Part shown: one piece after another, positions 9,109 to 36,056 of the stretch
Numbering within the stretch: position 1 is the first letter of the stretch
Layout: every line of letters starts with the position of its first letter
From: Minisyncoccia bacterium
GTDB lineage: Bacteria; Patescibacteriota; Minisyncoccia; JACQLN01
Length of the DNA stretch: 64,000 bases
Assembly: GCA_049274895.1 (NCBI GenBank)
Contig: JBASTM010000022.1
Location: forward strand, 2,424 to 66,423
Direction of reading: 5' to 3'
Program-made: the position numbers and the translations under genes
Notes under the pieces: generated by a model
Told to the model about the DNA's origin: nothing
Databases searched by the model: none
Seen by the model: the letters and a program-made list of their open reading frames with translations, nothing else

Positions 9109-10998
9109 TTACTTGATGGTCAGGCGCCATATCTCATGCGATCCGACCACCATAAGACCGATCTTGTCTAGAAACAAGTGCCGGCCGGTATGCACAAACC
9201 GGGCGGAATCGGGGAACTCTTTCTCAACGACAAGATTGTCACCCGAAGCTTTTACCCGAACTATCCCATCGTCAGTCGCGACAAGAAGAAAGTCGCCCAC
9301 AGCGCACTTGCCGCGAAGTGTTCCCAGCCAAGATCCGTCACCAGCTTCGGCTTCGGCTCGCGCCTCAACCGTGCCGTCGTAACGGATAAGAAAACAGGAG
9401 TTTATGGTCTTGCCACTGACACGGTTTGAAACGATGAACCAGATTCTGTCCTTGCCAAAAAGACAAGTGGAGTCAACAAGTTGGCCATTGAACGGCCTTA
9501 AAGTCAGACTGTCGTTGATTCCTTTTTTCTCGGTGTTGAAGATGAAACATTGGCTTAGGCCGCCGGCGCGGTAGAAACCGAAGCCGACGCGCGACCCCGT
9601 CCAAAACAAAGTCTGTTGAGGCAACACATCGCCAATCGTTTCCTGGAAATCAGCGCCTAAATCGCTCGTGCGCTTAATCTGCCCGTTCTGCGTCCAGAAG
9701 ATATGATGTTCATTGGCGTCAACTACCGGCAACAACCCAAGGGTGTCGACAGTAAGCTTATGAGACGTCTGTTCTTGGGCGACGAACACAAGAGCGCGGT
9801 TGCCGCTTGCGATCACTGTGCCCAATCCTCGGATGCGAAAACGGGCGTGGGGATCAAGAGCGCCGGTTATAACCACCGAATCATCTTCGCGGCGGTATTC
9901 GCCGTTATGATGATAGAGCCAGCGTAAGTTTCCCCCTTGGGAAACAGCGAAAACAATTTTCCCTTCTGTCCGAAAAATTCTTTCACCTGAAACAGTTCCC
10001 GTGGACACGGCTGTCACCGCCTGTGGGATTATGGCTTTGCATTTGGGGCAAACACCGCGGGCGTGGAGCGTGCCACAAGTGCCGCAGGTCGTCCAACAAA
10101 TATCTTCAAGAAGCTGCCGCGGAATTAGCATCCGCTTGTCTCTCTCGAAAATATCGTGGAAGCACTGCAACAGATTGTCCGGCAGAACACTAAAGTGCCG
10201 GGATGGCTTCGGATAGCGCACTTCCGGATGAAATACCGTGATGCGGTGGAGCGGCCGAGCGCCATGGCTTATCTTTTGGGATGCTTTCTTTGGCTTGTAG
10301 ACTCCGCCGTATGGTCCGCCGGAAAGACAGAGCAGGGTTTGCATCAGCATAACCGCGAACGCGTACCAATCCGACATTTCGTTGTGCGGTTTTGAAAGAA
10401 GAAGTTTATTTTCGCTCGGATCACAGAGCAGTGGATCCACGAATCTCTCCGTGAAAACTCTGCACAAGAATCTGCCAAACTGGCAGCTGTCCGCGTCAAT
10501 TACATACGCCTCCGCTTTATCCACCAGAACATTAAGATCGTTGAAATCTCCTAGGACAACTCTGTTGGTATGGACCTGTTGTACTGTCGCATGGAGATCC
10601 TGAAAAATCTTCACAACAGTATCGTCCGATATTCCACCTTGCCTGAAGTTGACTTCCCCATACCGCAGAAGAACTTCCGCTCCTCTTTTGAACGGCATGG
10701 TGTAACCGACAACGCTTCCATCTTGCGCATAGGCAAGCTCCTGTGGAGCCACTATACGATGCGGCAGTCCGGAAGGGAATGATGGCAACTTTTGTTGGTG
10801 CTCAGCTATGCGCTTCCGGGCCCCTTCTTGCTCGTGCGGTAAACCTTGGTAGTCGGGGTGATCCGGCGGTTTGAAAATCTTTAGCGCCAGACCGCCGCCG
10901 ACATCATAGATGTCGGCTTCTCCTCCTTTGCCGATTGACTTGGCGGGATCCGGCCGAAATTTCTTTTTGGCCTGGCCAATCAGAATTTGGGTAGGCAT
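9109..10998 (-). CDS. atypical Ser/Thr protein kinase-like protein with zinc ribbon and C-terminal beta-propeller-like region
   Basis: Gly-rich loop IGKGGEADIY, Lys in ALKIFK, catalytic-loop-like VLGDFNDLNVLV and DFG-like YVIDADSCQFG. Then CWTTCGTCGT...CPKCK zinc ribbon and ~300 aa of repetitive beta-rich sequence. Start lies 2 bp after the PP2C stop. Confidence 0.65.
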   Translation of the reverse strand: MPTQILIGQAKKKFRPDPAKSIGKGGEADIYDVGGGLALKIFKPPDHPDYQGLPHEQEGARKRIAEHQQKLPSFPSGLPHRIVAPQELAYAQDGSVVGYTMPFKRGAEVLLRYGEVNFRQGGISDDTVVKIFQDLHATVQQVHTNRVVLGDFNDLNVLVDKAEAYVIDADSCQFGRFLCRVFTERFVDPLLCDPSENKLLLSKPHNEMSDWYAFAVMLMQTLLCLSGGPYGGVYKPKKASQKISHGARPLHRITVFHPEVRYPKPSRHFSVLPDNLLQCFHDIFERDKRMLIPRQLLEDICWTTCGTCGTLHARGVCPKCKAIIPQAVTAVSTGTVSGERIFRTEGKIVFAVSQGGNLRWLYHHNGEYRREDDSVVITGALDPHARFRIRGLGTVIASGNRALVFVAQEQTSHKLTVDTLGLLPVVDANEHHIFWTQNGQIKRTSDLGADFQETIGDVLPQQTLFWTGSRVGFGFYRAGGLSQCFIFNTEKKGINDSLTLRPFNGQLVDSTCLFGKDRIWFIVSNRVSGKTINSCFLIRYDGTVEARAEAEAGDGSWLGTLRGKCAVGDFLLVATDDGIVRVKASGDNLVVEKEFPDSARFVHTGRHLFLDKIGLMVVGSHEIWRLTIK

Positions 10999-17777: not shown

Positions 17778-17778
17778 A

Positions 17779-17822
17779 AAACAACATTCCAACATTCTGC
17801 AGAATGTTGGAATGTTGTTTTA
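17779..17822. terminator. bidirectional terminator formed by a 20-bp perfect palindrome
   Basis: AACAACATTCCAACATTCTG|CAGAATGTTGGAATGTTGTT followed by TTTT and flanked upstream by AAAAA. Lies between convergent genes. Confidence 0.75.
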
Positions 17823-17833
17823 GGAATGTTGTT

Positions 17834-18793
17834 TTAGGTTAATGTCTGACCAACTATGCAGTTGTAGCCGTTAAGGAATTCGGCCGAGGTTAGGATTTTG
17901 GAACCCTCCGGCTGGAGTTTGGTTATTTTGACCGCGCCGGAGGCGCAGGCGATAAGGAGATTTTTGGACAAGTCGGTAAAAATTTCCCCCGGCTGTTTTT
18001 GCCGAATATGTTGAACATCGGATGTTCCACATTTTTCTATTTGGATGAGTTTGAGGCGGATGCTGGCGCCGGATTTGTTTTTGAAGAAAGTATATACGCC
18101 TGGCCATTTTAGGTAAGCCCGCCAGAGGTTATAGACTTCTTCGGCCGACATTTTTTGCCAATCCACGCGGCCATTTTCTTTTTTAATCAACTTGGTAAAA
18201 GTGGCCTCGGTATGATTTTGCTCGTGGGGTTTTATTTGACCGGAAACATATTCAGGCAAATCATGGATGATCATCTCTGCACCTATTGCAGCCAGTTTCG
18301 GTTCCAAGGTCAGGTAGGTCTCATCGGCACCGACCAAAAAGGCCTTCTGCGAAATCACCGGCCCGTGATCCACTTTTTCATCTATCACCATCAGCGAGAC
18401 TCCGGTTTCGGTTAGACCTTGGACTAAAGTTGCTTGGATGGGCGAGGGACCCCGCAGTTTGGGCAGGAGTGATGGGTGGACGTTGACCGTTCCGAACTTA
18501 GGAATATTGATAACCTCTAAGGGTAATATCTGACTGTAAGCCACCACAACCATAACATCGGGATTGAGAGCGGCTAGATCAGACTTTATATCTTTGATAG
18601 CTGCGGGCGTGGTTGTTTTTAGATTCAACTCTCGGGCCGCTTGGGCCACGGCAGAGTCGGTCAATTTTTGGCGGCGTCCAGCCGGTTTAGCCGGTTCGGA
18701 AACAATTAAAATAATATCCCAATCGGTTTGAGAAGCGATGGTTTTTAATATCGGCACGGCGAACTCCCCGGTTCCAGCAAAAACGATTCTCAT
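17834..18793 (-). CDS. fmt: methionyl-tRNA formyltransferase
   Basis: N-terminal MRIVFAGTGEFAVP formyltransferase fold and a C-terminal domain. Directly downstream of def. Confidence 0.9.
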   Translation of the reverse strand: MRIVFAGTGEFAVPILKTIASQTDWDIILIVSEPAKPAGRRQKLTDSAVAQAARELNLKTTTPAAIKDIKSDLAALNPDVMVVVAYSQILPLEVINIPKFGTVNVHPSLLPKLRGPSPIQATLVQGLTETGVSLMVIDEKVDHGPVISQKAFLVGADETYLTLEPKLAAIGAEMIIHDLPEYVSGQIKPHEQNHTEATFTKLIKKENGRVDWQKMSAEEVYNLWRAYLKWPGVYTFFKNKSGASIRLKLIQIEKCGTSDVQHIRQKQPGEIFTDLSKNLLIACASGAVKITKLQPEGSKILTSAEFLNGYNCIVGQTLT

Positions 18794-29555: not shown

Positions 29556-29724
29556 GTATTTGTCCAAGAGCGAAGCCGAGCTCAGCTCGGCGGAGCGAGT
29601 GGTGACAAATAGTCATCCAGCACCTTTTAGATGTATAAATAATCTTTACCTTGAAAAGGTGCTGGATGCTCAATTCTGTAGTGAAATTTATTTCACTACG
29701 TTCATAAATTTCAACATAATTGGC

Positions 29725-30771
29725 ATGGACGAAACAACTTTCCAAATAGTACGAATACTGGCTTTGGCTTTCGGAGCTTTCGTTTTGTCTATGGTCTTAA
29801 CGCCGTGGTGGACCAATATTCTTTATAAATACCGCTTGGGCAAGCAAATTCGCACCGAGGGCGCGCCGGTATTTGCCGCTTTGCACAAAGGCAAAGAGGG
29901 TACGCCCACTATGGGCGGCGTCATCATCTGGCTGACTTTGCTAACGTTGATCTTGATTACGGTTTTAGCCGAAAAGTTTTTTCCCAATAGTCTGGCCGCC
30001 CAACTTAATTTTTTGTCTCGGCCTCAAACACTATTGCCGCTGGGCGTGCTTGTTTTCTCGGCCATCATTGGGCTGGGAGACGACTTACTGGGAGTTTTCA
30101 GGATCGGCTCTAACGGCGGCGGACTAAAAATGAGGCACCGTCTGGCGCTCTATACCGCAGTGGCTATAGTCGGCGCGCTCTGGTTTTATTATAAACTAGA
30201 TTGGACTGTGGTTAAGGTGCCTTTTTTGGGTGTATTTGATATCAACGGCTGGTATATACCTTTTGCCATATTCATAATCGTGGCTACCTCGTTTTCGGTC
30301 AACGAATCCGACGGCTTGGACGGTCTGGCCGGCGGCTTGATGCTAACCGCTTTTGCTGGCTACGGCCTGGTGGCTTTTTTTGAGGCGAGGTACGATCTAG
30401 CAGTCTTTTGCGCGGTGATTGTGGGGGCTTTACTCTCCTTTTTGTGGTTTAATATCCACCCAGCCAGATTTTTTATGGGCGACACCGGAGCTATGCCGCT
30501 CGGCGTAACTTTGGCTGTTATCGCCCTTCTGACTAACGCGGCCTTGGTTTTGCCGTTTCTGGCTTTCGTGCCGATGGTGGAATCTATATCGGTGATTGTG
30601 CAGGTGCTAAGTAAAAAATTAAGAAACGGAAAAAAGGTTTTTCTCTCGGCTCCCATTCATCACCATTTCCAAGCCAAAGGCTGGCCCGAAACTAAAGTTA
30701 CCGAAAGATTCTGGATCATCTCCTCGGTTATGGCCGCCATCGGCATTATTGTTCAACTCCTCGGTAAATAA
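29725..30771 (+). CDS. mraY: phospho-N-acetylmuramoyl-pentapeptide transferase
   Basis: Signature NESDGLDGLAGG and the HHHF motif, with multi-TM topology. The ORF continues upstream to 29560 through a hairpin-rich leader, so the start was set at MDETTFQ. Confidence 0.85.
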   Translation: MDETTFQIVRILALAFGAFVLSMVLTPWWTNILYKYRLGKQIRTEGAPVFAALHKGKEGTPTMGGVIIWLTLLTLILITVLAEKFFPNSLAAQLNFLSRPQTLLPLGVLVFSAIIGLGDDLLGVFRIGSNGGGLKMRHRLALYTAVAIVGALWFYYKLDWTVVKVPFLGVFDINGWYIPFAIFIIVATSFSVNESDGLDGLAGGLMLTAFAGYGLVAFFEARYDLAVFCAVIVGALLSFLWFNIHPARFFMGDTGAMPLGVTLAVIALLTNAALVLPFLAFVPMVESISVIVQVLSKKLRNGKKVFLSAPIHHHFQAKGWPETKVTERFWIISSVMAAIGIIVQLLGK

Positions 30772-31511
30772 TGTTGAACATCCGATGTTCAACAATCATA
30801 TATGTTTAGACACCCCGCTATAACCACTACAGGAGAGTATCTACACATCTATAATCGTGGCAATGATAGACAAACAATATTCCACGATGAGCGTGATTGG
30901 ATAAGATTTTTGTTCCTAATCTTACATTTGCAATCCAAGGTGGTTTTTGAGAACATTGGTCGTCATGTCAGTTACTTTGTTAAACATCGGATGTTCAACA
31001 CTGAAGAAAGCATATCAGATATTTTACGAACTCGATTAGTTGAGCTTACTACATTTACTCTTATGCCCAACCACTTTCATTTGGTGATAGTCGGATTGAA
31101 AGATAGAGGAGTATCAGAATACATGCGCCGTGTACAAGATGCTTACACTAAATACTACAATACCAAACACAAAAGAACTGGACACCTGTTACAAGGACCC
31201 TATCAAGCTGTACACATAAAAAACAACAACCAACTCTTACACCTATCGGCTTATATACACAAAAACTCTAGGGAACTGCCGACTTGGAAAAATAAAGAAC
31301 ATTTATATCCATGGTCCAGTTATCAAGACTATCTAAAAAACCGCTGGGGAGAGCTTCTAAACAGTAGTATAATCTCAGAACAATTTAACAAACCAGAAGA
31401 TTATAAAATCTTCGTGAAAAATAGTAGTGCCAAAGAATCACTACCAGATAATTGTCTAATTGATTATTTTGATTAAACGTCGAATGTTGAACATCCGATG
31501 TTCAACATTCG
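30772..31511 (+). mobile_element. RAYT/IS200-like Y1 transposase unit flanked by REP-like palindromes
   Basis: The transposase ORF is bounded by near-identical palindromes TGTTGAACATCCGATGTTCAACA at 30772-30794 and 31481-31511. Inserted between mraY and a convergent gene. Confidence 0.65.
30802..31476 (+). CDS. REP-associated tyrosine transposase (RAYT) / IS200-like Y1 HUH transposase
   Basis: YLHIYNRGNDRQTIFHDERDWIRFLFLIL ... TLMPNHFHLVI (HUH motif) ... conserved Tyr region (GPYQAVHI). Confidence 0.75.
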   Translation: MFRHPAITTTGEYLHIYNRGNDRQTIFHDERDWIRFLFLILHLQSKVVFENIGRHVSYFVKHRMFNTEESISDILRTRLVELTTFTLMPNHFHLVIVGLKDRGVSEYMRRVQDAYTKYYNTKHKRTGHLLQGPYQAVHIKNNNQLLHLSAYIHKNSRELPTWKNKEHLYPWSSYQDYLKNRWGELLNSSIISEQFNKPEDYKIFVKNSSAKESLPDNCLIDYFD

Positions 31512-31534: not shown

Positions 31535-31567
31535 ATCCCGCACCTTTCATTTGAAAAGATACGGGAT
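31535..31567 (-). terminator. rho-independent terminator of the secreted-protein gene
   Basis: Minus-strand ATCCCG-N21-CGGGAT hairpin followed by TTTTATTTT. Confidence 0.6.
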
Positions 31568-31575
31568 AAAATGAA

Positions 31576-32133
31576 CTACTCCCGTTTAGGACTAGGACGG
31601 TGGTCGGCAATTTGGTAGCGCTGCCGCGACGTATCCGTCCGGACCTCGAGACTGCTGTTAGGAGTCTTACGCCGCACCAAATAGTTGAATTTTTCGACTA
31701 TAGTCAAGGTGTCACCGGGTCCCATCTCCAAAGAACCCACCGCGAGCTTGAAGGTGTGAGGTCGGTCGGAGTCAAGTTCATCCATAGTGATCTCGACAAC
31801 ACCGCTCATATCTTTTTTGGTGATGACCACGCCCGTTACCCACTCTTCGCCCGGGTATATCTTCCACACTTCATGGATGCGGCCCGCCCCAACGCCCAAG
31901 CGCGGGCCGACCGCTATGTCGAGCGCCAGACTGTCTCCAATCTCCACAGTCATCTTATTTAAGAGATCAGCGCAGATGGTGAATACCGAATCGCCGTCAG
32001 CTACGGTGACCGAGTCGGAGGTCATGCTTTTGACCGTGACCCACCTGGTTTGAATCTCCAGAATGTCGGTAGCGGCAGTGGCGAAACCGATCAAAATGAG
32101 CGTGACCAATACGAACACGTTCTGGCGGCACAT
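31576..32133 (-). CDS. hypothetical secreted protein
   Basis: Start moved to MCRQNVFVLVTLILIGFATAA (signal peptide) with an AGGAGG RBS upstream. Beta-rich, no identifiable domain. Confidence 0.5.
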   Translation of the reverse strand: MCRQNVFVLVTLILIGFATAATDILEIQTRWVTVKSMTSDSVTVADGDSVFTICADLLNKMTVEIGDSLALDIAVGPRLGVGAGRIHEVWKIYPGEEWVTGVVITKKDMSGVVEITMDELDSDRPHTFKLAVGSLEMGPGDTLTIVEKFNYLVRRKTPNSSLEVRTDTSRQRYQIADHRPSPKRE

Positions 32134-32238
32134 ACCAACCTCCTTTTTCTGGTGATGTCCACCTGCCACCTCTAAGCCAATTTTAAGGTACAATATAATT
32201 ATAGCAAATAACAAAATAAATATGGTAAAATTGTATCA

Positions 32239-34949: not shown

Positions 34950-36056
34950 ATGACTAGTCGAAAAATACTGCTGTGCGGCGGGGGAACGGGCGGGCATGTT
35001 CTGCCTTTGGTGGCGGTGGCCAGAGCCATTAAAAAAATTGCGCCGGAAACCAAAATATATTTCGCCGGGCCGGAGGAGTTTTCTTTAGACTCTTTAAGGC
35101 AAGAAGGCGTAATTGTTAAAAAAATAATTGCCGCGGGCAAGTTGCGGCGGTATTTTTCGTGGCTTTATATTTGGGAACTGATAAAACTGCCTTTGGCCTT
35201 GGTGCAGTCTTTTTTTGTGGTGCTGGCCATAAACCCCGACGTCGTCTTAGGCAAGGGGAGTTATGGCAGCATCCTGCCGGTAATAGCAGCCAAGATGTTG
35301 TTTAAGAAAACAATCATCCATGAGTCTGATGCCGTGCCGGGTCTCGCCAACAGATTCTTATCTCATTTAACCGATAACGTCGCCGTTGCTTTTGAGGAAA
35401 CTAGAAAGTTTTTCCCCAATAAAAATGTATACGTGGTTGGCAACCCGGTACGGCTTAGATATCTTGGTTTGACCAAAAAGGAAGCTCAAAAAATTCTTGA
35501 TCTGCCTATTAACGAAAGTATACCGAGCTTGCTGCAGCAAGCTCGGTATACGATCTTTATCAGCGGAGGATCGCAGGGCGCCCAGAAGATAAACAAGGTT
35601 ATTTTGGAATCATTAACCAGTCTGCTAGAAAAATATCTGGTGATTTGGAGCACCGGCACCGCCAATTACAAATTTATCAAAAATTCGGTATCCGACAACG
35701 TCAACTTAAAGATTGAACCCTTCCTAGGTGAAAGGGAATTGGCCGCCGCTTACGCGTTATGCGACGTAGCTGTGGGCCGGGCCGGGGCTGGCACTATTTT
35801 TGAACTGGCCGCCTTCGCCAAGCCAGCTGTCTTAATTCCCCTGGAAAGAAACGGCGGCGACCAGCCGGTCAACGCTCAAGTTTATATTAAGGCCGGTGCG
35901 GCCATTTTATTAAAAGAATCAGAATTAAACCCAGAAACTCTACTCGCCAAAATCGACGCAACATTAAACCACAGCGACGAATTAAGCCGCAACGCCAGAA
36001 AATTTGCTAAAATAGAGGCAGGCGAACAATTGGCTAAAATCCTATTAGACCTATGA
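34950..36056 (+). CDS. murG: undecaprenyldiphospho-muramoylpentapeptide beta-N-acetylglucosaminyltransferase
   Basis: KILLCGGGTGGHVLPLVAVA N-terminal motif and a GT28 C-terminal domain. Confidence 0.9.
   Translation: MTSRKILLCGGGTGGHVLPLVAVARAIKKIAPETKIYFAGPEEFSLDSLRQEGVIVKKIIAAGKLRRYFSWLYIWELIKLPLALVQSFFVVLAINPDVVLGKGSYGSILPVIAAKMLFKKTIIHESDAVPGLANRFLSHLTDNVAVAFEETRKFFPNKNVYVVGNPVRLRYLGLTKKEAQKILDLPINESIPSLLQQARYTIFISGGSQGAQKINKVILESLTSLLEKYLVIWSTGTANYKFIKNSVSDNVNLKIEPFLGERELAAAYALCDVAVGRAGAGTIFELAAFAKPAVLIPLERNGGDQPVNAQVYIKAGAAILLKESELNPETLLAKIDATLNHSDELSRNARKFAKIEAGEQLAKILLDL

Follow-up and report, generated by a model that had tools for sequence, protein, structure and literature searches.

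RAYT/REP systems, in which a REP-associated tyrosine transposase (RAYT) is paired with repetitive extragenic palindromes (REPs), are the textbook domesticated bacterial transposase. Work by Nunvar in 2010, by Bertels and Rainey in 2011 and by Ton-Hoang in 2012 reportedly also concerns such units, which are called REPtrons. Here we describe a unit that invites comparison with them, found in a 64-kb stretch of a Minisyncoccia genome (the window, meaning the whole stretch analysed), where a gene for a predicted Y1 HUH nuclease is bracketed by 23-nt hairpins and holds a further copy of the hairpin in its own reading frame. It is probable, in our judgement, that the unit is REPtron/TIRtron-like, in which a Y1 HUH gene of the TnpA(REP) class, long resident and passed on mostly by vertical descent, is joined by its cognate 23-nt hairpins.

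TnpA(REP)/RAYT genes flanked by cognate REP hairpins are known from E. coli, Pseudomonas and Stenotrophomonas (Corneloup 2021, PMC8266576). Enzymes of subclass 2.4 (RAYT group 4), which have a 'WQ' motif, can harbour GTAG REP insertions of variable length and sequence that keep the frame of tnpA(REP) and lie between its HuH and Tyr motifs (Quentin et al. 2018, PMC6006769). Subclass 2.1, the TIRYT genes of TIRtrons (RAYT group 1), is marked by terminal inverted repeats (TIRs) with the consensus GGGGWSAS (Di Nocera et al. 2013, PMC3733652; Quentin 2018, PMC6006769) and by a C-terminal helix-turn-helix (HTH)-like domain (Bac_DnaA_C, HTH_23 or HTH_28), and Quentin et al. saw no REP-like structures adjoining its genes (PMC6006769). 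Palindromic repeats lying in frame in housekeeping genes are represented by the Rickettsia palindromic elements (RPE; Ogata 2000, as cited in PMC3733652) and by intragenic REPs (Di Nocera 2013). The literature searched contained no paper linking RAYT-type genes or REP-like repeats with bacteria of the candidate phyla radiation (CPR).

Three hairpins around and within one gene

The unit in the window comprises the following features.

30772..30794, no strand assigned: left flanking hairpin TGTTGAACATCCGATGTTCAACA, 10-bp stem and 3-nt loop
30802..31476, plus strand: predicted Y1 HUH tyrosine nuclease of 224 aa, RAYT/TIRYT-like, class 2 (Pfam PF01797)
30978..31000, no strand assigned: internal hairpin TGTTAAACATCGGATGTTCAACA, within the open reading frame (ORF) 30802-31476, codons V60-N66
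31069..31080, plus strand: HUH motif N90-H91-F92-H93, with H91 and H93 invariant in an alignment of 33 homologs
31252..31269, plus strand: Tyr motif Y151-I-H-K-N-S, with Y151, H153 and N155 invariant and Tyr151 at 31252-31254
31481..31511, no strand assigned: right flanking hairpin, a core 23-mer (31485-31507) with the stem extended to 14-15 bp

The exact 23-nt palindrome TGTTGAACATCCGATGTTCAACA occurs twice, at 30772-30794 and 31485-31507. Its left copy begins directly after the mraY stop codon (30769-30771) and stops 7 nt short of the ATG of the Y1 gene, and the right core starts 8 nt downstream of the stop of that ORF. An earlier, sequence-only reading of the window had described an HUH gene bracketed by this palindrome, with the motifs YNRGNDRQ and HFHLV, and on both counts it was right, HFHLV lying within NHFH at 31069-31080. 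It had also placed a third copy inside the ORF, which exists, at 30978-31000 and not at about 30975-30993. The flanking copies are TGTT...AACA palindromes without GGGGWSAS. The internal copy, TGTTAAACATCGGATGTTCAACA, differs from them by one arm mismatch and has the opposite central base; it encodes V60-K-H-R-M-F-N66, in which the codon pairs V/N, K/F and H/M are mutually reverse-complementary. A search of the 64 kb allowing up to three mismatches returned four sites in total, against an expectation of 0.00 from 100 shuffles, the fourth site lying in fmt. Folded as single-stranded DNA (ssDNA), the left copy reaches -8.8 kcal/mol (z = -5.7), the right -14.3 (z = -6.3) and the fmt copy -7.2 (z = -3.1). 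An A-C mismatch makes the internal copy fold only weakly (-3.8 kcal/mol), a value that 28 of 200 shuffles equal or better. An Rfam search of the palindromes matched nothing.

The same layout recurs widely. We fetched 80 metagenomic loci encoding homologs and detected hairpins in them de novo; 58 have one on both flanks, of the form TGTnnnAC..(3 nt)..GTnnnACA (consensus aaaTGTTaAACACCGAGTGTTTAACAttt), typically 5-45 nt before the ATG and 0-27 nt past the stop. The internal segment was located by protein alignment to V60-N66, not by palindromicity, and was scored as a hairpin if at least 8 of its 10 pairs formed. After duplicates had been collapsed, 40 of the 54 remaining loci have it, in most cases at an offset of 170 nt from the ATG, at the motif FVKHRMFN (VKHRMFN for codons 60-66). 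It has decayed, with the flanks kept, in 14 of the 54, for example in L020, whose flanks now read TGGCAGACCCTCGGGGTCTGCCA; since about a quarter of the loci that still have flank hairpins have lost it, the internal hairpin is dispensable. The loop occurs in either orientation at the upstream, internal and downstream positions alike. A scan of species-representative genomes found the identical 23-mer in Saccharibacteria, in Giovannonibacteria and in one Parcubacteria metagenome-assembled genome (MAG), and a Saccharibacteria locus (L013) encodes a 51%-identical homolog with the same upstream, internal and downstream arrangement.

Across 78 homologs, standard pairs fill 85.9% of the cells of the internal pairing, compared with 36-47% in slid controls. 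Compensatory change affects 7 of the 10 internal pairs, with 64 double-changed cells, and none of 500 shuffles reached the observed pairing or covariation score. Matching within loci was measured by summing the stem distances between copies and comparing the sums with those obtained under 5000 permutations of the locus labels.

Internal versus upstream: observed 206, shuffled 336 +/- 13, reached in 0/5000
Internal versus downstream: observed 202, shuffled 332 +/- 12, reached in 0/5000
Upstream versus downstream: observed 112, shuffled 333 +/- 15, reached in 0/5000

Copies resemble their partners at the same locus far more than they resemble the copies of other loci. At the protein level this appears as coupled residues: V/N, I/N (AAT) or V (GTC)/D at positions 60/66, K/F or R/F at 61/65, and H/V, H/M, N/V or S/A at 62/64. 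The loop residue is Arg in 37, Ser in 25 and Pro in one of the 78 homologs; CGA and TCG, like CGG and CCG, are reverse complements, so that these chemically unlike residues are what inversion of the loop at the DNA level is expected to produce. Locus L052 has identical stems in all three copies, TGTTAAAAGC/GCTTTTAACA, with the downstream loop inverted, and encodes VKSSAFN; L093, with TGTC..GACA, encodes VKNSVFD, and L082, with TATT..AATA, encodes IKHRVFN. The internal copy lags where the protein cannot encode the stem of the flanks. One such stem, TGTTGGACAC, would require Gly at position 61, and, F65 being nearly invariant, loci whose flanks are of the type TGTTAGACAC...GTGTCTAACA have ...GTGTTTAACA as the internal counterpart, which pairs through a G-T wobble.

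Far from being incidental, the internal copy specifies a conserved stretch of the protein and changes in step with the flanking copies across the family. One could hold that only the flanking palindromes are real and that the internal and fmt copies arose by chance or from codon usage, and the window's own internal copy, mismatched and folding no better than those 28 shuffles, would suit that idea. We give it almost no credence. No match is expected in shuffled sequence of this length, the internal copy follows its own flanks in a way that no permutation reproduced, and both the internal and the fmt sets show compensatory changes; the last two observations refute a chance origin.

Some loci depart from the simple 23-nt form. 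Both flanks of L111 (9946-9986 and 10678-10716) and the upstream flank of L047 are 37-39 nt palindromes made of two overlapping units, TGTTAGACACTCGGTGT-nnn-ACACCGAGTGTCTAACA, and resemble REPIN-type doublets. A hairpin arm is partially duplicated inside the ORF at the internal site of L081, where the duplication encodes VRHRRSNMLSNMLNMFN, and in a tRNA_m1G_MT gene of L004 (1508-1545), where it encodes NVEHRMFNKMFNK; these ORF-internal duplications suggest slippage or repeated insertion at hairpins.

The enzyme and its described relatives

Judged by its motifs and its modelled structure, the protein is a Y1 HUH enzyme of the class-2 TnpA(REP)/RAYT-like kind, with a predicted Y1 fold. Pfam Y1_Tnp (PF01797) matches at 34.9 bits (cut-off 23, E = 1.9e-8), aligning residues 57-155 to model positions 18-121 of 121 and so reaching the end of the model; at E <= 0.01 it was the sole Pfam match, with no HTH/DnaA_C-like match at the C-terminus. 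The AlphaFold2 (AF2) model has a predicted local distance difference test (pLDDT) score of 65, and of 70-87 in the N-terminal half. When it was compared with the PDB by Foldseek, the best 26 matches were all Y1 transposases (IS608, ISDra2, TnpA(REP) 4er8 and IS200-type TnpA), headed by 2vic at E = 8.5e-5; a sequence search of the PDB gave a weak match to ISDra2 TnpA (E = 0.004). A 14.9-bit PADLOC hit to pAgo was treated as noise, and a PHROGs search returned nothing.

The signature 'Y---NP' distinguishes class-2 TnpA(Y1) enzymes, the TnpA(REP)/RAYT group, from the IS200 type with 'Y---Q' (PMC6006769). The family consensus, YIH[RK]NP, reads as the class-2 signature, and the window protein has YIHKNS, with Ser for Pro. 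The class 1 IS200/IS605 motifs, Y---Q with DH[VI]H, are absent from the protein, which has YIHKNS and NHFH in their place. An FQ-type motif is present as GHLLQGP, equivalent to GHLFQGP in the family (GHL[FL]QGP), and a family-specific extension of about 70 aa follows at the C-terminus. The RAYT assignment of the sequence-only reading had been made to hang on the catalytic Tyr and on copies of the palindrome beyond this locus: Tyr151 is invariant in the 33 homologs, and the palindrome is not unique to the locus.

Homologs numbered 986 among 1049 scored candidates. The 120 that were listed are 56-79% identical over almost their full length, 79% being the best value among 5.8 billion proteins, and wherever the sources name the organism for these 120 it is a member of the Patescibacteria (Minisyncoccia, Nealsonbacteria, Zambryskibacteria, Tagabacteria, Levybacteria and Paceibacterota among the named groups). 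An exhaustive HMMER search of 1.84 billion cluster representatives returned 76 clusters at E <= 1e-30 and 4053 at E <= 1e-10.

Like a REPtron, the unit pairs a predicted class-2 Y1 HUH enzyme with hairpins of its own that bracket the gene; the hairpin sequence tracks the enzyme lineage, related genomes tend to have the gene at the same site and perhaps mostly in a single copy, and further copies of the hairpin lie elsewhere in the genome. Unlike REPtrons, it has no GT[AG]G guide tag, its hairpins are apparently very few and many of them lie inside genes, the protein falls below the NCBIfam RAYT cut-off and has its family-specific C-terminal extension, one hairpin forms part of the enzyme's own reading frame, where it encodes a conserved motif, and the family has so far been seen only in Patescibacteria.

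Subclass 2.4 offers a precedent for a cognate hairpin inside a transposase ORF with the frame intact. There the hairpins lie between the HuH and Tyr motifs, whereas here the hairpin occupies codons 60-66, before HuH (90-93), at a fixed position and length and in a conserved motif, and the enzyme has 'FQ' and not 'WQ'. With the TIRYT enzymes the family shares the NH[YF]H and FQ motifs, a C-terminal extension and a length of about 220-240 aa; in both, the flanking inverted repeats can be self-complementary and dispersed copies are moderate in number or absent. It differs from them in the absence of GGGGWSAS and of any C-terminal HTH/DnaA_C-like Pfam match, and, in contrast to subclass 2.1 as reported, nearly every locus has adjoining hairpins. 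What is new here is a fixed, codon-embedded, co-varying internal hairpin, together with structurally conserved copies inside essential genes; an internal copy that changes with the flanks has not previously been described for a domesticated transposase of this kind.

Copies inside housekeeping genes

The sequence-only reading had proposed that copies of the palindrome elsewhere would define a repeat family, and such copies exist, several outside the window and one within it that it had missed.

18009..18031, no strand assigned: dispersed cognate copy, in frame in fmt (minus strand), 22/23 identical, encoding C-G-T-S-D-V-Q-H

Homologs of fmt that are 57-76% identical keep C-x-T-S-D-V-x-H at the position of the hairpin, and we therefore reject the copy as a recent insertion. 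The hairpin stands at the same codons in the window and in four other genomes, with differing stems.

Window: TGTGGAACATCCGATGTTCAACA
L099: TGTCAAACCTCCGAGGTTGGACA
L101: TGTGCAATATCTGATATTGCACA
L107: TATGCGACATCGGATGTCGCATA
L108: TGTGCGACATCTGATGTCGCACA

Across these five genomes pairing extends to 96% of the cells, and compensatory changes affect 6 of the 10 pairs; 0/500 shuffles reached this. The window alone, among the genomes reached, has the fmt hairpin and the gene hairpins as a pair within one genome; in the others the mraY site is empty, or fmt and the Y1 gene lie on separate stretches. The flanks of L019 (...AAACCTCCGAGGT...) and the fmt hairpin of L099 (...AAACCTCCGAGGT...) come from the same groundwater study and might stem from a single organism.

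Other genes hold copies as well. Giovannonibacteria MAGs have the identical 23-mer in frame in three genes, one of the TrmD family (Pfam tRNA_m1G_MT), one of the Asp/Glu-racemase family (Asp_Glu_race) and one of the TP-methylase family (TP_methylase), and all three copies encode VEH[RP]MFN, described as the same peptide as that of the Y1 gene. In the window's murG, positions 35675-35697 (TATCAAAAATTCGGTATCCGACA, FIKNSVSD) form a decayed hairpin of the Y1-gene type, and the same position carries an intact one in L021 (TGTTAAACACCGAGTGTCTAACA), L020 and L104 (TGTCCAACACCTGGTGTTGGACA). About 11 solo hairpins matching that of the local gene occur in the 338 kb flanking homologs, and L025 has a second copy of the Y1 gene about 2.9 kb away. 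The hairpin family is perhaps small, with tens of copies per genome, partly intragenic, and unlike classical REPs. As far as the RPE and the intragenic REPs are characterised in PMC3733652, they share with these copies the presence of palindromic repeats in frame in housekeeping genes, tolerated in surface loops. Against the RPE as outlined in that source, the elements here are only 23 nt (8 codons) long and are linked to a cognate Y1 gene, and in one of them at least, the fmt copy, compensatory substitutions have preserved the pairing from genome to genome.

These positions also bear on the idea that the palindromes act as RNA or double-stranded DNA (dsDNA), as terminators, attenuators, mRNA-stabilising stem-loops or the operator of a dimeric regulator, independently of DNA cleavage. 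The left copy abuts the mraY stop and looks terminator-like on the minus strand, with a T-rich tail after it; standing 7 nt ahead of the ATG it could occlude ribosome binding, the right copy lies 8 nt past the Y1 stop, and a perfect 23-bp inverted repeat resembles an operator. Neither flanking copy, however, is followed by a U-tract on the gene strand, and Rfam offers no match. The sequence also occurs within coding regions of both strands, where it is read in two different frames (VKHRMFN for the Y1 gene, CGTSDVQH for fmt), its loop is free to invert at all three positions of the unit, and it accompanies the Y1 gene in nearly all of about 80 loci, whatever the neighbours. We consider a purely RNA- or dsDNA-level role improbable.

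Three further palindromes lie in or near the same genes. The murG ORF of the window contains a perfect 34-nt palindrome at 35518-35551, GTATACCGAGCTTGCTGCAGCAAGCTCGGTATAC, in an in-frame insertion of about 11 aa (ESIPSLLQQAR) that is common to L104 and L020, with a compensatory arm change (CCGAGC..GCTCGG to CCGAAT..ATTCGG), and absent from L103, L106 and L021; this makes a second kind of palindromic element within a housekeeping gene. Within fmt of L107 (GCA_030697795.1), a second, unrelated perfect palindrome, TGATTGAAGTCGAACTTCAATCA at 10743-10765, lies 38 nt upstream of the conserved hairpin within an insertion of about 7 aa that is specific to its lineage. The third, AAAACAACATTCCAACATTCTGCAGAATGTTGGAATGTTGTTTT (17778-17821), is a perfect 44-nt palindrome in the window, between the ABC-3 permease gene and fmt where these converge; with a partial repeat of one arm after it, it looks like a bidirectional terminator.

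Residence at the mraY site and a model for the unit

The Y1 gene of the window lies after mraY and ahead of an amidohydrolase-ftsW-murG cluster; the sequence-only reading had placed it after mraY, within the cell-wall and division gene cluster. Six related genomes have the gene at this mraY/amidohydrolase site, among them L019, L020 and L021 as well as those whose contigs carry P0002 and P0004; the contig with P0007 comes from the same organism as L019 and was taken as a duplicate. Compared with the window, the genomes sharing the site have identities of 74-88% in MraY and 60-79% in the Y1 protein, and their Y1 proteins are its nearest homologs in the database. Such persistence at one site speaks for a gene long in place that has been lost cleanly more than once. 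A second lineage (L111 and L112; Y1 protein 59-60% identical) has the gene, at 10001-10675, in the order dnaB-recR-gene-rplU-rmuC, and in L112 a solo cognate hairpin stands directly after recR.

Several observations weigh against a resident REPtron/TIRtron-like unit. The closest MraY relative (92%; L109, L110) and four others (80-83%; L103-L106) have clean empty sites, as the sequence-only reading suggested that related genomes might, with mraY followed directly by the amidohydrolase gene across a gap of 29-186 nt and no hairpin. RAYT and MraY identities agree only loosely (r = 0.70). In every one of the 47 loci that have 3 kb or more of flank, the Y1 gene has a lower GC content than the DNA around it, on average 31.5% against 41.1%; in the window its GC is 36% against 47.5% overall, and its GC at third codon positions (GC3) is 33% against 52-58% in the neighbours. 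This AT-richness could be a foreign or mobile signature, or could reflect the mutational bias of DNA that is often single-stranded, and together with the patchiness and the loose congruence it fits a mobile element better than a domesticated gene. Other points touch the assignment itself. The NCBIfam RAYT equivalog NF047646 is matched at 34.3 bits, with a cut-off of 80; a GT[AG]G tag or its complement lies near the foot of just 8 of 126 distinct flank hairpins; and the AF2 model is only moderate, with the Tyr-bearing helix modelled at low confidence. A single copy, in fmt, lies outside the locus in the 64 kb, and the murG hairpin of L021 (ACAC-CGA-GTGT type) differs from that of its own gene (ACATC-C-GATGT type), by which strict uniformity of embedded hairpins within a genome is rejected. 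The proposed link between protein and hairpins, finally, rests on adjacency and co-variation. What survives of the sequence-only assignment is a Y1 HUH enzyme of a RAYT-like class with cognate, bracketing palindromes; the protein is well short of the NCBIfam RAYT model, and the palindromes, without GT[AG]G, at four copies in 64 kb and with several in genes, are not canonical REPs.

Patchiness and composition keep an insertion-sequence-like life style in play, and the leading competitor of a resident unit is an autonomous IS200-like insertion sequence. On this account the 740-bp hairpin-tnpA-hairpin unit (30770-31511) has the two hairpins as its left and right ends, is excised seamlessly as a single-stranded circle and reinserts, moving among CPR genomes, also horizontally. 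Size and architecture match, since IS200 likewise spans about 0.7 kb and contains one Y1 gene and subterminal hairpins (PMC8266576), here perfect palindromes at both ends, and the empty sites in close relatives, seamless and free of any hairpin footprint, are compatible with peel-and-paste excision. The AT-rich composition, the patchy presence relative to MraY identity, the two copies in L025 and the differing gene contexts among lineages point the same way. Set against this, the window has a single copy, no multi-copy near-identical elements were seen and the best relative among 5.8 billion proteins reaches 79%; the nearest homologs are all at one syntenic site, conserved over the MraY divergence of 74-88%, with a divergence that roughly tracks MraY. 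The Tyr motif, moreover, is of the class-2 type Y---N[PS] and not Y---Q, solo hairpins persist at fixed positions in fmt and murG across genomes, as the ends of insertion sequences do not, and such an element has no role for the internal hairpin. We regard an autonomous IS200-like element as unlikely, though the most serious of the alternatives.

The window and L109 have in common the sequence AAAATAAATA(A)TATGGTAAAATTGTATCA just ahead of the amidohydrolase ATG, so that the difference between them is a block from 30772 to about 32200, made up of the hairpin-gene-hairpin unit and an unrelated, lineage-specific minus-strand ORF (31576-32214). The insertion after mraY that the sequence-only reading proposed is supported by the empty sites in relatives, and, with the site occupied in related genomes, it was no simple recent event. 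The gene is both inserted and resident, depending on the timescale, and it is not a recent insertion.

For the REPtron/TIRtron-like unit that we prefer, we propose a model in which ssDNA that has folded into the hairpin (10-bp stem, 3-nt loop, TGT...ACA foot) is the enzyme's target, and the DNA beside it is cut and rejoined through Tyr151 and the HUH metal site. This mechanism would follow by analogy from the biochemistry established for the TnpA(REP) enzymes of E. coli, S. maltophilia and Marinomonas and for the TnpA of IS608 and ISDra2 (PMC8266576, PMC6006769). Enzyme and hairpins would co-evolve, with the internal copy following changes in the flanks as far as the protein tolerates: a change of K61 to Arg would be accepted, F65 would be kept at the price of a G-T wobble, and the loop codon would flip among Arg, Ser and Pro upon loop inversion. 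Most likely, though with low certainty, the internal copy may act as a target in cis, linking the enzyme to the gene that encodes it through autoregulation or preferential binding in cis. Alternatively, it may be an old in-frame insertion of a hairpin that is kept uniform by copy correction, either enzyme-mediated or recombinational.

It is tempting to speculate further that the hairpins are functional marks serviced by the Y1 enzyme on ssDNA, more than mere remnants of a selfish repeat, and that the copies in essential genes and in its own gene are deliberately maintained. We think this a doubtful proposition, and would put less weight on it than on the IS200-like account. If it were true, the target sequence and residues V60-N66 would be forced to evolve together in a self-referential coupling of enzyme and substrate, and such coupling, conserved across Patescibacteria, could serve autoregulation or replication-coupled control of host genes. 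The family is in any case an unusually clean natural experiment on the matching of enzyme and hairpin. The hairpin family is apparently tiny, changes in the target can be read as amino-acid changes (H/M, H/V, N/V or S/A, with Arg, Ser or Pro in the loop) because one copy lies in the enzyme's frame, and the copies in essential genes can be traced at the same position across genomes. Co-evolution, copy correction and possible autoregulation thereby become testable. Annotators should be aware that a palindromic segment of 8 codons in a CPR housekeeping protein may stem from a repeat.

Two neighbours of the unit deserve comment. The minus-strand ORF 31576-32214 (212 aa, GC3 64%) lies between the Y1 unit and the amidohydrolase gene and has its own terminator-like hairpin at 31535-31567. 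Pfam, PHROGs and PADLOC gave no match to it, and NCBIfam only a sub-threshold one (MazE, 16 bits against 130); since it is absent from every related locus examined, it is a lineage-specific addition and not part of the unit. The mraY ORF is listed as 29560-30771, with a TTG start at 29560 and 403 aa, and close homologs are all 348 aa long and align from residue 56, so that the true start is probably the ATG at 29725.

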